NCBI GenBank assembly: GCA_003166335.1
Contig: PMWA01000031.1
Span: 1 to 27,864, forward strand
Direction of reading: 5' to 3'
From: Methanobacterium sp.
GTDB taxonomy: Archaea; Methanobacteriota; Methanobacteria; Methanobacteriales; Methanobacteriaceae
Length of the DNA: 27,864 bases
Position numbers and translations under genes: made by a program. Below the pieces are notes generated by a model that was not told the origin of the DNA, did not search any database, and saw only the letters and a program-made list of their open reading frames with translations. Below, piece by piece: positions 6,894-20,320 of the stretch; positions within the stretch are counted from its first letter, which is position 1, and the number at the start of each line of letters is the position of its first letter.

Positions 6894-6908
6894 CCGGAAC
6901 CTATATAT
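6894..6908 (+). promoter_or_regulatory. Putative BRE-TATA promoter of the lyase/radical SAM unit
   Basis: CCGGAAC-CTATATAT immediately upstream of operator copy 1. Confidence 0.5.
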
Positions 6909-6909
6909 C

Positions 6910-6927
6910 AAATAACTATTGTTAATT
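6910..6927. promoter_or_regulatory. Palindromic sulfur-gene operator, copy 1
   Basis: AAATAACTATTGTTAATT, core TAAC-TATT-GTTA at 6913-6924. Confidence 0.65.
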
Positions 6928-7047: not shown

Positions 7048-8175
7048 TTGAAATTCGATACAAAATCCATACATGAAGGCAGGAAACCGGATCCCCTTAC
7101 AGGAGCAATTTCCACACCCATATATCAAACTTCTACATTCGTATTCGAAGATTATGATAAACCAGGTGAACATGATTACTCCAGAACTAGCAACCCCACT
7201 AGAAGTGCACTGGGAGAAGCTATAGCTGGTTTAGAAGGTGGACACCAAGGATTTGCATTTTCAAGCGGCATGGCTGCTGTAACCACTGCGATACATCTTT
7301 TAAAAGCAGGAGATCATATTATATCGTGTGATGATCTTTATGGTGGTTCCCACAGACTTTTTTCGGAGATAATGACTAAATTCGGATTAGAATTCACTTT
7401 TATGAGGTTGGATGATGAAGAAAAAATTCAAGAAGCAATAAAACCCAATACTAAAATGATCTGGATAGAAACACCATCCAATCCATTATTAAACATAACA
7501 GATCTGGAAATGGTTTCCAGGATTGCTAAGGATAATGAAATACTGACTGCTGCAGATAATACTTTCTCAAGTCCATACTTCTTAAGACCTTTAGAATATA
7601 ATATTGATCTAGTAATACATTCCACAACCAAATATTTGAATGGACACTCAGATGTTATTGGAGGTGCAGTAGTTACGTCTAGTGAGGAGCTTTCAGAGGA
7701 AATTCAATTTCTTCTTAATGGAATGGGAACTAATGCATCACCATTAGACTCTTGGCTAGTCTTAAGAGGTATTAAAACTCTTCCTCTAAGGATGAAGAAA
7801 CATGCTAAAAATGCCATGACCATAGCCCAGTATTTAAGTGATCATCCAAGGGTTAAAGAAGTCTTCTATCCGGGATTAACATCTCATAAGGGACATGAAA
7901 TTGCTAAAAAACAGATGGATGGTTTTGGTGGAGTGGTGTCATTCAAAATAGATACAAATGTAGTTGAATTCCTCAGAGGGTTGGATATATTCGCTCTGGC
8001 TGAATCATTGGGAGGTGCGGATTCTTTGGTGGAACATGCAGCTACAATGAGTCATGCTTCTATGAATGAGGAGGTTAGGAATAAAGCAGGTATCACTGAT
8101 GATCTTATCCGATTATCAGTAGGTTTAGAGGATGTAAATGATCTTATTGAAGATTTAGATAAAGGATTCAAATGA
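7048..8175 (+). CDS. PLP-dependent Cys/Met metabolism enzyme (cystathionine gamma-synthase/gamma- or beta-lyase family)
   Basis: YSRTSNPT, FSSGMAA, ETPSNP, DNTF, HSTTKYLNGHSDV (PLP Lys), AESLGG and IRLSVGLE. TTG start after AGGAG. The exact reaction cannot be assigned by eye. Confidence 0.9.
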   Translation: MKFDTKSIHEGRKPDPLTGAISTPIYQTSTFVFEDYDKPGEHDYSRTSNPTRSALGEAIAGLEGGHQGFAFSSGMAAVTTAIHLLKAGDHIISCDDLYGGSHRLFSEIMTKFGLEFTFMRLDDEEKIQEAIKPNTKMIWIETPSNPLLNITDLEMVSRIAKDNEILTAADNTFSSPYFLRPLEYNIDLVIHSTTKYLNGHSDVIGGAVVTSSEELSEEIQFLLNGMGTNASPLDSWLVLRGIKTLPLRMKKHAKNAMTIAQYLSDHPRVKEVFYPGLTSHKGHEIAKKQMDGFGGVVSFKIDTNVVEFLRGLDIFALAESLGGADSLVEHAATMSHASMNEEVRNKAGITDDLIRLSVGLEDVNDLIEDLDKGFK

Positions 8176-8196
8176 TATATAAATAGAAGGATTATT

Positions 8197-9363
8197 TTGA
8201 TGAGTGAATTAACCAAATTAAAGATTGAACTACTCTGTAAAGGAATAAGAATAGATTCTAAAGAACCATATTACAGAGAAGTAGTGCCTGAGACATATGC
8301 TGAAGGAGGTAAATCTAGAGCTGGAGTAGCTGGTAGTGGCAAATCATTTCTTTTAGGTTGTGAAGAACCTTGCAATGTCGGAGTTTTACAGCCATTTCTC
8401 AAGGAATCACCTTACGCATTTAAAATAATAGATAACCAAGGTTGGATTCTAAAGAATGGTGAAAAAACTATTAAAGCCACATTAAGAGAACCAAAATGGC
8501 ACTCAACAGATCTTTTGAATGAAATCCAGTTACATGGAATAAATTCAATAGCCACTGCAATTTCTAATTCATGTATTTATAAAAAGCAAGGAGTTGGCTG
8601 TAAGTTCTGTATAATTGATGTTGGTCGAGAAGTAGTTTTTCATGACCCATATAAGATTGCAAGATCAATAGAAACAATCGAAAAAAATCCGGATCTCAGG
8701 TTATGTTTTGATATTGAAGATAAATATAATCCAAATCTTGATGAAGAAGAACTTTTAAGACGAAAAAGATACATAGAACCCAAAGATATTAATATAAATG
8801 CTGGAGCCCTTAAAAATGCAGTGGAAATTTATGGAAACACTATTTCACAGATAAAACGTGTTAGTAAACTTCCTATTTTCATAGAAATTGGTCCTATGAA
8901 TAAAGATAAAATTGAAACTCTTTATTCTGCTGGTAAAGATGCATTAAGTTTTAATTTAGAAGTTTATGATAAAAATGCAAGAAAAAATGTAATTCCAGGT
9001 AAAGCCAAGATTAATACTCCTGATGTATACTTCGACGCTATGAAAAATGCTTCTGATATAATTGGAGAAAATCAGGTAAGCTCTTGGATATTAATTGGAC
9101 TTGAGCCTCCTGAAAAAACCATAGAAGGGATCAAGAAAATAGCAGAAGCAGGTGCGATACCTCTGCCAAAACCGTTCAGACCGTTATACGGTGCAGATTA
9201 TGAAAAAAGAAAACCTCCTACAATAAAGGATGCGATTTTAATTTATACCGAATGGTTAGACACAATCAAAGAGTATGGTTTGAATCCTTTTAAAGCTAAA
9301 GCAGGTTGTGTACGATGTAACGCATGTTTTCCCATACGAGAATTATTGAAATATGGTATCTAG
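8197..9363 (+). CDS. Radical SAM protein with CX8CX2C motif, resembling the MSMEG_0568/biotin-synthase-like group
   Basis: C126-x8-C135-xx-C138 (CIYKKQGVGCKFC), SFNLE, ILIGLE, and C-terminal AGCVRCNAC. Start is TTG 8197 or ATG 8200. Confidence 0.8.
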   Translation: MMSELTKLKIELLCKGIRIDSKEPYYREVVPETYAEGGKSRAGVAGSGKSFLLGCEEPCNVGVLQPFLKESPYAFKIIDNQGWILKNGEKTIKATLREPKWHSTDLLNEIQLHGINSIATAISNSCIYKKQGVGCKFCIIDVGREVVFHDPYKIARSIETIEKNPDLRLCFDIEDKYNPNLDEEELLRRKRYIEPKDININAGALKNAVEIYGNTISQIKRVSKLPIFIEIGPMNKDKIETLYSAGKDALSFNLEVYDKNARKNVIPGKAKINTPDVYFDAMKNASDIIGENQVSSWILIGLEPPEKTIEGIKKIAEAGAIPLPKPFRPLYGADYEKRKPPTIKDAILIYTEWLDTIKEYGLNPFKAKAGCVRCNACFPIRELLKYGI

Positions 9364-9562
9364 TAAATATTTTAAAAATTTGAATAATAATGGTTTGGAA
9401 ATCTCTTTTAAGAGCAGATGCAGTTAAAATTGTTTTTTTCTATAAGAAATGAATATTTGCGTTATTTATTAGTTGGGGTTCATGTAATACCATGAGTTTT
9501 TAAATTTTGAATCTAAATTGGGTTAAAAAAATAATTAATGACAAATATATAAGTAAAAATTA

Positions 9563-9580
9563 ATATAACAATTGTTAATA
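9563..9580. promoter_or_regulatory. Palindromic sulfur-gene operator, copy 2 (upstream of thiI-thi4-MOSC)
   Basis: ATATAACAATTGTTAATA with perfect core TAACAATTGTTA at 9566-9577. TATA-like ATATATAA at 9545-9552. Confidence 0.7.
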
Positions 9581-17251: not shown

Positions 17252-17408
17252 ATTTTTTACCTCACATTTTGTTTTTGTGAATTCATAAAGATAAATCTTA
17301 ACACATTTGTTAAAGATAACTTTTCATCGAAATTTAAGAAATAAAGAAATGAATTGATATAATGAATAATTATATTTCAATGAGTTACTTTGTTAAATAA
17401 AATTTCCA

Positions 17409-18881
17409 TTATTTGCTCCCAGCAATTAAGGTGCTTATATGATCAGTAGTGATGATACCAATAACTCTGCCCGTATCATCCACTACGGGAAGGGATGATA
17501 TATTATATTTCCTCATTTTTTGGGCAGAAGACTCTATAGAGTCATCTGGAAGCGCCATGATAACATCCTTGGTCATTATATCTTCTAATTTATCATATTT
17601 AAGAGCCACAGCTTTTGATATGTCCCATGCAGTAACGATACCTATAAGTTTATCTTCCATATTAACTACAGGAATATGGGTAATTTTATCTCTTATCATG
17701 GATTTAGCTGCTTCTTCAATGCTGGTGTTTTTACTAATCTTAGCTACCATATGACTCATCACATCTCTTACTAGGATATCTGACAAGAAATTTTCGATAA
17801 CGTAATTAAGTTGTCCTCCTTCAATTAGAAAAGCATCATGACCATAACTGGATTTCAACTCATAATAAATAACATCTACCTCATTAGCAGTTAAAGCCAT
17901 TAAAATTTCTTTTGATTGTGAAGGGGGATAAAGCCAATCAGAGTCGATTGATATAACTAAAATTTTAGATTTAACATTCTTTAAACCATCTGCTAATGAG
18001 CCATCCACTGTTAAATCAAAATAATCAATGGCTTTAGTTATGTAAAGATATGTGTTAGCATCGAATCTTTTAGTGAAGGAGTTACCTTGATAATGAAGAT
18101 AACTCTCCACTTGAAAATCAGTGGAAAATTCGAAACCATATTCATCCTTATCCTGGAGTCTTCGACCGAATTTCTGATACATGGATTCATTGCTGAGATA
18201 AGTGATATGAGCAATCATACGGGCTAGGGCCAGACCATTATCTGGAAATTGAAGAGAATAATATTCACCATGATTCCAATTTGGATCAGATATAATAGCT
18301 CTTCTACCCACCTCATTAAAGGCTATCTGTTGTGGAGAGGAGTAGGCTGCTGTAGCTATAGGTATAGCCATTCTTACCATGTCTGGATAGGATATGCACC
18401 ATTGAAGAATTTGCATACCACCCATAGATCCTCCTATAACCGCAAATAATTGCTTAATGCCCAAATAGTCGATTAATTTTTTCTGAGCATTTATCATATC
18501 TTTAATAGTTATAATTGGAAAATCCAAGCCATAAGGTTTCCCAGTTTTAGGATTTAGGGATGAAGGACCGGTAGATCCTTTACAACCTCCGATAACATTA
18601 GAACATATGATAAAGTATTTATCAGTGTCCAGGCATCTACCAGGACCAATTATGATATCCCACCAACCAGGTTTTGAATCACCTTCATGCCATCCAGCTG
18701 CATGTGCATCGCCTGAAAGGGCGTGGCAGACCATTATAGCGTTACTTTTCTCCTTATTCAATTTACCATAAGTTTCATACGCTATGGTAATGTTTTCCAA
18801 CCTTTCTCCTCCCTCTAAAACCAGATCATCGGAGGGTTTATAGTACTGCGTTGCTATAATTCCTACAGATTCCTTTCCCAT
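17409..18881 (-). CDS. metX: Homoserine O-acyltransferase MetX fused to a C-terminal CBS pair
   Basis: HALSGD, GGSMGG nucleophile elbow, SDWLY and GHDAF. Two CBS repeats in the last ~120 aa. ATG 18881 preferred over TTG 18893. Confidence 0.92.
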
Positions 18882-19003
18882 CTTACATCCCAAGATTACC
18901 GTTAGTTATAACTAAAATTCTATTATTCATATATTTTTTTATCATCTCCCGCTTAATAAAAACCTTTTGAAAACATTTCACTTAGTAGATGAATCTTTTT
19001 ACT

Positions 19004-20320
19004 TTACACGTTTATTTTGGAAAGTGATTGATCAATATCTGCGATAATATCTTCCACATTTTCTAGTCCAATGGACAATCGGATAAAGTCCTGAGTTACT
19101 CCGGTGGTTTCCTGCTCTTCTGGAGTTAATTGCTGATGTGTAGTGGATGCAGGATGTATAACTAAACTTTTAGCATCTCCAATATTAGCCAAGTGAGAGA
19201 GAAGCTCCACATTTTCAATGAATTGTTTTCCAGCTTCTAATCCGCCTTTAATACCAAATCCTATAAGAGCACCATAACCACCTTTCAAGTATTTAGAAGC
19301 TACTTCATGGGATGAGTCATCTTCTAATCCTGGATAGTTAATCCAATTTACTTTAGGGTGTTCCTTCAAGAATTTTGCAACTTCAAAAGCATTTTCTGAG
19401 TGTTTCTTCACCCTTATATCCAGGGTTTCCAATCCTTGCAGGAATAAGAATCCGTTGAAAGGACTTAAAGCTGCTCCTATATCACGTAAAAGTCTTACTC
19501 TTGCCCTGATGGTGAAGGCTATGTTTCCAAGTCCCGGGAAATCACCAAAGGTTTCCCAGTATTTCAGACCATGGTAACTTGGATCCGGTTCAGTGTATTG
19601 TGGGAATTTACCATTGCCCCAATTAAATTTACCTGAATCAACTATTACTCCACCAATTGAGGTTCCATGCCCTCCTATAAATTTTGTGGCTGAATTTGCT
19701 AGTATGTCTGCTCCAAGTTCCAGAGGCTTTACTAAACCAACTCCTGAGGTGTTGTCAACCACAAATGGTATATCATTTTCGTGAGCAATTTCTGCAATAC
19801 CCTCATAATCAGGCACATCTAACTTTGGATTACCTATTGATTCGGCAAAAATTGCTTTTGTTTTATCTGTGACTGCATTTTCAATCTCTTTCAGATTAGT
19901 TGATTCAACAAAGTTAACTTTTCTACCTAGTTCTGGAAATGTGTAGTTAAAAAGCTGATATGTACCACCATAGAGGTTGTTTGCTGCTAATATTTCATCA
20001 CCAGGTAAACTAAGGTTTAGAAGCGAGTAAGTAGTGGCTGCCTGTCCAGATGCTACGGCTAATGCCGAAGTACCGCCTTCTATAGCTGCTATTCTTCTTT
20101 CGAAGATGTCGTTGGTGGGGTTCATTATACGTGTGTATATGTTACCAAATTCTTTCAATGCGAAAAGGTTTGCTGCGTGGTCTGTGTCTTTAAATACGTA
20201 GGATGATGTTTGATAAATGGGTACTGCCCTAGATCCAGTTGCTGGATCAGGTTCTTCCTGCCCGACATGTAATCCTAAAGTAGCTAATCCATATTCTCTC
20301 TTTTTTTCTTCTTCGGTCAT
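19004..20320 (-). CDS. metY: O-acetylhomoserine aminocarboxypropyltransferase/sulfhydrylase MetY
   Basis: [36 protein letters not shown] and [21 protein letters not shown]. Upstream of metX. Confidence 0.94.

Follow-up and report, generated by a model that had tools for sequence, protein, structure and literature searches.

The 27,864-nucleotide (nt) stretch considered here (the window; contig C107:1-27864) belongs to a Methanobacterium sp. genome (G000) of 99% completeness, whose near relatives are named Methanobacteriaceae. It carries a gene for a pyridoxal 5'-phosphate (PLP)-dependent enzyme, followed on the same strand by a gene for a variant radical S-adenosylmethionine (SAM) enzyme. The radical SAM enzyme represents an uncharacterised clade that combines an IsrB-like cysteine motif with a link to sulfonate-binding proteins, and does so without a nitrogenase-like partner. 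The enzyme may use radical chemistry to cleave the C–S bond in a C2 sulfonate of the coenzyme M type, with no need for the PLP enzyme; we put the probability of this reading at roughly 0.4. The original prediction had envisaged a two-enzyme route that forms or cleaves a C–S bond, for instance in a thioether. C–S bond chemistry is still the likely theme, but a sulfonate substrate is favoured over an amino-acid thioether because of the neighbourhood evidence. Furthermore, the two genes do not constitute a conserved module, and the unit of interest is the radical SAM clade rather than the pair.

The radical SAM protein passes the cut-off of the family profile NF045502 (134.9 versus 125 bits). It fails those of TIGR04043, the MSMEG_0568 family (111.5 versus 303.7 bits), and of the LipS2 model NF053743 (23.8 versus 270 bits), its motif being CX8CX2C and not CX3CX2C; such a profile placement had been proposed along with the original prediction. 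The CX8CX2C motif, the RAGVAGSG loop and the C-terminal C371xxC374xxC377 on which that prediction was built are all present in the translation at the residues it named (Table 1). It had regarded the CX8CX2C spacing as atypical, a view that does not hold within the family. A profile search recovered 1802 family representatives at E ≤ 0.001, and motifs were counted in the 112 proteins of 330–430 amino acids (aa) among 148 newly listed representatives. The eight-residue spacer occurs in 102 of the 112, and the C-terminal CxxCxxC in 89. In its available part, the RadicalSAM.org report catalogues CX8CX2C for megaclusters 4-6-1, 4-6-3, 4-6-5 and 4-6-6 (PMC9477430). This spacing is the norm for NF045502 and megacluster 4-6, which the window protein resembles both in passing the cut-off and in its motif. 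NF045502/megacluster 4-6 is nevertheless a domain-level family, from which the window clade differs by an insertion near residues 160–195 and by its own neighbourhoods.

The likeness to the MSMEG_0568-type enzymes of Nit1C clusters, also put forward in the prediction, is real but does not amount to membership. The homology is full-length, with 25% identity, a shared Gly-rich N-terminal loop and a shared C-terminal GCxxCxxC. In contrast, the score falls far below the family cut-off, the two MSMEG_0568 examples compared have CX9 spacing, and a quick tree places the window protein in a 32-row clade (support 100) apart from the MSMEG_0568 proteins. PMC1199592, in its available text, names COG2516 as the group nearest to the Nit1C enzymes. 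No Nit1C gene (nitrilase, GNAT or AIR-synthase-like) was found in the window, as had been noted before, or among the annotated neighbour representatives. A literature search returned no paper joining MSMEG_0568 with radical SAM, and searches that did not cover subscription journals found none on the radical SAM clade of the window. At L146:65-2571, from an archaeon, an L-ASST-like (DUF39-CBS) gene is overlapped at its end by the gene of a protein that exceeds the MSMEG_0568 cut-off; this 4-kb locus contains no Nit1C gene.

SAM cleavage is predicted for the CX8CX2C cluster, and C371, C374 and C377 probably hold a second metal site, in agreement with the auxiliary Fe-S site anticipated earlier. 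In LipS2, an auxiliary [4Fe-4S] cluster is held by C85, C276 and C279, according to the available part of PMC9585515. A second cluster on C371, C374 and C377 is plausible because the C-terminal CxxC of LipS2 ligates this auxiliary cluster. C55 and C59, which had been listed as extra cysteines, do occupy their named positions; in the alignment of 40 homologues, C55 is found in one sequence, the window protein itself, and C59 in 23, a conservation so poor that both are ruled out as cluster ligands. C14, absent from the prediction, is invariant in all 40. Apart from the C-terminal CxxC, the likeness to the archaeal lipoyl synthases LipS2/LipS1 consists of weak profile matches. LipS2 differs in its canonical CX3CX2C and its place in megacluster 4-8, as far as the available parts of the sources go, and the window-clade loci contain no visible lipoyl partner genes.

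The predicted structure (predicted local distance difference test, pLDDT, 94) adopts a radical SAM fold. Its top structural matches are tied within Z 1, namely MqnE (Z 18.6; root-mean-square deviation, rmsd, 3.8; 232 aligned), LipA (Z 17.8; rmsd 3.3; 239 aligned) and HydE (Z 17.6), at about 15% identity. A sequence search of the PDB yielded no solved relative of the protein, and the ESM Atlas matches were unnamed radical SAM clusters only. Some distant members of the family have a GNAT, ATP-grasp, methyltransferase or second radical SAM-like domain fused to them (P0096, P0136, P0156, P0160 and P0178). An Archaeoglobales paralogue with 34% identity (L122–L128) sits with methanogenesis marker 11, beside genes that we take to be of the YcaO/TfuA type.

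The link to sulfonates emerges from the neighbourhoods of the clade. Sixty-four loci were fetched, near-duplicates included, of which 60 contain the radical SAM open reading frame (ORF) and four were dropped. Within three ORFs, an SsuA-type binding protein or permease is present in 25 of the 60, the PLP gene in 16, both in none and neither in 19, several of these last being cut at contig ends. Among 27 GTDB loci, the SsuA-type protein or permease is found in 15 and the PLP gene in five. The SsuA-linked hosts comprise Methanophagales, Candidatus (Ca.) Ethanoperedens, Bathyarchaeia, Archaeoglobales, one Dehalococcoidia metagenome-assembled genome (MAG) and three bacteria. SsuA-linked enzymes of anaerobic methanotrophic archaea 1 (ANME-1) and Bathyarchaeia are 60–70% identical to those of Methanobacteriaceae, with all cysteine motifs invariant. 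The binding proteins fall into three subtypes that are 22–38% alike over aligned stretches; six pass the TIGR01728 SsuA cut-off, namely four of a set of seven scanned together (two in L025, one each in L023 and L038) and both of L026, and those of L027, L030 and the window genome do not reach it. In the ANME-1 locus L026, the gene order is MMP16, ComA, ComB-like, ComDE, SsuA, permease, radical SAM, SsuA and ATPase. The available part of a study in Methanosarcina (PMC12068725) identifies ssuA/ssuC as a coenzyme M importer and MMP16 as coenzyme M synthase. Across 94 Archaeoglobales genomes, a close orthologue of the radical SAM gene occurs in seven, six of which have mcrA, a gene found in 10 of the 94; overall, mcrA is present in 8 of 17 non-Methanobacteriaceae hosts. 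A literature search for coenzyme M, radical SAM, ABC transporter, sulfonate and ANME-1 together returned no paper uniting them. Two ORFs downstream of its radical SAM orthologue, the Dehalococcoidia MAG carries a lone nitrogenase component 1-type gene (L027:5395-6801).

The same combination of motif and neighbours is met in IsrB. In Rhodobacter capsulatus, IsrB is essential, together with IsrHDK and SsuCAB, for the anaerobic use of isethionate sulfur (PMC11423573; review PMC13474568; both in their available parts). The former describes its role as unclear and gives BciD as its best Swiss-Prot match. The window clade shares the C-x8-C-x2-C preceded by S-N seen in the Paenibacillus orthologue rows of Fig. 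S4 (PMC11423573, available part), and the tie to SsuABC-type importers and sulfur-assimilation genes. It differs in that IsrB works with the nitrogenase-like IsrHDK; the two were compared by motif rows. When IsrB was searched for via a paralogue, no named IsrB appeared among the 120 best of 564 matches, nor in plasmids. A second NF045502 clade, with a C-terminal HCxxC, lies under the palindromic box that also precedes the PLP gene of the window (Table 1) in two further genomes, G005 and G025 (L108:2539-3672, L109:54-1169, L110 and L111:7289-8431). It adjoins NifX-like genes and, in L110 (one fragment), a nitrogenase-like D gene as well, and possibly represents an archaeal Isr/Mar-type system. 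By short motif only, these paralogues look closer to IsrB than the window clade does.

The following sequence of events may be envisaged. The box would serve as a repressor site that is lifted under sulfur shortage, so that both genes are read together. The CX8CX2C cluster would cleave SAM to yield a 5'-deoxyadenosyl radical, which would take a hydrogen from a small sulfonate of the coenzyme M, methyl-coenzyme M or isethionate type. This substrate would be held near the second cluster on C371/C374/C377, perhaps with the participation of C14. Scission of the C–S bond would release sulfite or sulfide for reuse by CysK/MetY-type enzymes of the same regulon, while the PLP enzyme alongside would carry out ordinary transsulfuration.

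Several observations weigh against such a sulfonate lyase. The radical SAM gene is rare, occurring in 12 of 201 Methanobacteriaceae genomes, in about 4 of 79 genomes of the class of G232 (three full copies and one fragment) and in 1 of 301 in the class of G241. The window genome holds no H-D-K set, its PF00148 genes being two solitary ones (a lone 394-aa gene and a CfbD-like gene). Nor does it hold an SsuA/SsuC importer: its one NMT1_2 protein has no signal sequence, and no SsuC permease was detected. If the sulfonate reading holds there, the substrate would be internal or arrive by another route. G089 (one contig, 99% complete) carries the radical SAM gene with no SsuA-family match, and in four carriers of genus g13 the box stands at background (1–5 sites versus 3–6 for the control), so that the enzyme can dispense with both sulfur regulation and an importer. 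No mcrA match was obtained in 9 of the 17 non-Methanobacteriaceae hosts, and coenzyme M itself is therefore not a universal substrate. Nor can the counts be treated as independent, the mcrA-bearing Archaeoglobales carriers being probably one lineage and near-copies being numerous among the loci. Finally, the wider family also occurs in contexts unrelated to sulfonate, including Nit1C nitrilase clusters, GNAT/ATP-grasp fusions and marker 11/YcaO-like neighbours.

Some of these observations would fit an enzyme that in Methanobacteriaceae has another job (cofactor, tRNA or protein modification) or is carried along nearly neutrally, the sulfonate link belonging to its relatives only. We consider this alternative somewhat unlikely. 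The stand-alone copies in genus g13, with no box, PLP gene or importer, accord with it, as do the patchy distribution and the diverse contexts of the wider family. It is difficult to reconcile with the invariance of the cysteine motifs and with the 60–70% identity shared with SsuA-linked enzymes of ANME-1 and Bathyarchaeia. Moreover, where the neighbouring PLP gene has decayed, the radical SAM ORF is intact and its synonymous codon changes exceed replacements.

It is decidedly unlikely that the enzyme builds rather than breaks, as part of coenzyme M salvage. Here, the terminal carbon of a compound of the ethanesulfonate type would receive sulfur from the second cluster, as octanoyl C8 does in the LipS2 reaction, or isethionate would be oxidised to sulfoacetaldehyde for MMP16. 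The position of the L026 gene, behind MMP16-ComA-ComB-like-ComDE and inside an SsuABC unit, would suit such a role, and so would the presence of LipA among the tied folds and of MMP16 in 10 of the 12 Methanobacteriaceae carriers. The C-terminal CxxC ligands likewise resemble C276/C279 of LipS2 (PMC9585515, available part), but the LipS2 model scores far below its cut-off. Hosts with no mcrA match (Bathyarchaeia, Dehalococcoidia and the three bacteria) would not need coenzyme M, and the window genome itself gave no MMP16 match. MMP16 was likewise not matched in G017, G005, G012 and G004, all five being methanogen genomes of 96–99% completeness, nor was an L-ASST-like paralogue (best E ~1e-9). 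An alternative coenzyme M synthase replacing MMP16 was also considered and is ruled out, with MMP16 in 10 of the 12 carriers and the radical SAM gene missing from three MMP16-less genomes. Of the coenzyme M genes, the window genome contains comDE, and one of its contigs ends in a comA fragment.

The two genes lie 21 nt apart behind the first box, as originally described, when the radical SAM gene is read from its TTG, and 24 nt apart from its ATG. Among the 201 Methanobacteriaceae genomes, however, PLP orthologues (E ≤ 1e-100) occur in 52, 48 of which lack the radical SAM gene. Only four genomes have both (G000, G014, G015 and G017, the last with a frameshifted PLP gene). The other radical SAM carriers comprise two with a decayed PLP copy alongside and six with no PLP orthologue at this threshold. 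In genus g13, five genomes carry one gene and six the other, with no overlap. Ten paired loci were checked, and in six of them the radical SAM ORF is intact whereas the PLP gene next to it carries a frameshift or has decayed; the same break recurs in separate assemblies for L020/L048 and L051/L053, and that of L015 may be an assembly error. Recurrent pairing with Cys/Met enzymes, for which a neighbourhood analysis had been proposed along with the prediction, is limited to one Methanobacteriaceae lineage (16 of the 60 loci and 5 of the 27 GTDB loci). In the tree, the radical SAM proteins of Methanobacteriaceae group in a single clade (100/100), and SsuA-linked lineages surround it. The PLP-linked rows require one or two changes on the tree, and a single clade of them is neither shown nor rejected (approximately unbiased test, p-AU 0.277). 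In the ten genomes fetched that lack a radical SAM orthologue, the PLP gene lies behind the box, with thiI next in line (7 of 10) or separated from it by moeB (3 of 10). Since this slot is kept in all ten, the PLP gene is an old member of the sulfur cluster, and the radical SAM gene probably came to lie behind it through a single insertion in one lineage of Methanobacteriaceae. Sequential action of the PLP and radical SAM enzymes on an S-amino acid or thioether, although compatible with the short gap behind one box, the RNA-library contigs of one study that span the junction and the gene order retained in 16 loci, is very improbable in view of the four genomes with both genes, one with a split PLP gene, the non-overlapping g13 carriers, the recurrent breaks and the slot held by the PLP gene alone.

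The first box is real as a clustered, conserved element. Allowing one mismatch, the window contains 13 strand-counted matches versus 1.54 expected, a number reached in 0 of 100 shuffles. Genome-wide, the exact box is not over-represented (13 seen versus ~11 expected from composition), but 9 of these 13 sites lie in a stretch of ~36 kb of sulfur genes, where 11 control palindromes have 0–1. Copies of the box are at 6913, 9566, 20531, 22702, 27294 and 27312 in the window and at C107:41223, 42729 and 42757 (L082). Fourteen loci of relatives were checked, and in every one the box, with no more than one mismatch, precedes the PLP gene. It marks a sulfur-gene regulon across many Methanobacteriaceae, including G102, which lacks the radical SAM gene and has 29 sites, mostly in one region. 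Its response to sulfur and its binding by a repressor are predicted from the target genes only. No description of the box was found among the literature matches listed, subscription journals not being covered. A TATA-like element at 6902-6907 lies immediately upstream of the first box. A sigma-70 scan (16 found versus 17.5 expected) is uninformative for an archaeon.

Near-identical window sequence is present in peat metatranscriptome runs. RNA contigs extend across the gene junction in two of four RNA-library runs, both from one study (7259-9426 and 7248-9234), DNA carry-over being possible; runs X3 and X4 have no cover over the junction and say nothing either way. RNA contigs from two studies stop at 9425-9426, a weak hint that the unit ends before the second box, which likely marks the next transcription unit.

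Table 1. Features of the two-gene locus and its flanking boxes (window positions)
Feature	Position	Strand	Remarks
Box TAACnATnGTTA, predicted repressor site of the sulfur-gene regulon	6913..6924	.	135 nt 5' of the PLP gene
PLP gene, Cys/Met metabolism enzyme (PF01053), MccB / cystathionine gamma-lyase/synthase type	7048..8175	+	375 aa, TTG start
Predicted PLP lysine K195	codon 7630-7632	+	aligned with 7d7o
Variant radical SAM enzyme (NF045502), uncharacterised clade	8197..9363	+	388 aa from TTG 8197, 387 aa from ATG 8200
C14, possible fourth ligand of the second metal site	8236..8238	+	invariant in 40/40 in the close clade
RAGVAGSG loop from R41	8317..8340	+	R41 and G48 invariant; alignment of 40 homologues
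C126-x8-C135-x2-C138, predicted SAM-binding [4Fe-4S] motif	8572..8610	+	invariant in 40/40 aligned homologues
C371-x2-C374-x2-C377, predicted auxiliary Fe-S site	9307..9327	+	invariant in 40/40; 89/112 distant relatives
Second box, before thiI-thi4-MOSC-pdxS	9566..9577	.	motif match

The PLP protein matches PF01053 with 505.7 bits (Pfam gathering threshold 27), and its best profile and PDB matches resemble MccB and cystathionine gamma-lyase/synthase, the nearest being cystathionine gamma-lyase/homocysteine desulfhydrase of the MccB type. The best PDB match is 7d7o (E 1.9e-123), with 4l0o also among the best. The best NCBIfam model is NF005810 (480 versus a cut-off of 594), followed by NF004821 and NF005871. 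No model exceeded its cut-off among the 25 best NCBIfam models listed, and the protein is hence of the lyase/synthase type without an equivalog assignment, the family not deciding between gamma-lyase and gamma-synthase. Ordinary transsulfuration, as suggested by the family, would explain this enzyme. The sulfur-gene cluster of the window further includes thiI, thi4, a MOSC protein, iscU/iscS, metX, metY, a second desulfurase, dsrE and cysK. Beyond the window, the same contig carries a PatB C–S lyase, moeB, an hdrA-like gene, moaD and mrp, as well as genes that are presumably cysE, cysS, hdrC and hdrB. A cysK-cysE-helix-turn-helix (HTH) unit is present in two copies on the contig (L082:365-2406 and 17319-19623), and its small HTH gene is a candidate for the box regulator. 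The window genome also contains three NIR_SIR-family genes, which are compatible with sulfite use.

A signal-less SsuA/NMT1-like protein with many invariant His/Cys residues is encoded behind moaD and the box (L082:12753-13679, minus strand; C107 ~39753-40679 in the window genome). A signal-less SsuA-like gene also directly follows the radical SAM gene in the mcrA-bearing Archaeoglobales loci. Among named matches, SsuA/TauA is nearest in fold, with Thi5 close behind, and the protein is possibly an enzyme. At E ≤ 1e-50 it occurs in 68 of the 201 family genomes, yet in only 5 of the 12 radical SAM carriers, which speaks against an obligate partnership. In 5 of 20 loci shown, its gene has an apparent ATC/ATT start behind a purine-rich ribosome site (L082:13677-13679, minus strand; L129, L130, L131 and L140); in the others of the 20, the same position is ATG, TTG or GTG.

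The PLP pairing is in itself of little interest. Known anaerobic cleavage of sulfonate C–S bonds proceeds through glycyl-radical enzymes or the nitrogenase-like IsrBHDK. It is unlikely, though worth stating, that the window clade is a stand-alone radical SAM sulfonate C–S lyase that works without a glycyl-radical enzyme and without a nitrogenase-like partner. Such an enzyme would recycle sulfur from coenzyme M-type molecules in peat methanogens short of sulfur, and would act on imported sulfonates of this type in ANME-1, Bathyarchaeia and sediment bacteria. A relative that lacks HDK partners and stands beside sulfonate-binding proteins in mcrA-bearing archaea offers a single-protein test of radical SAM action on a sulfonate, and the window clade could reveal a route of coenzyme M turnover in methane-cycling archaea.

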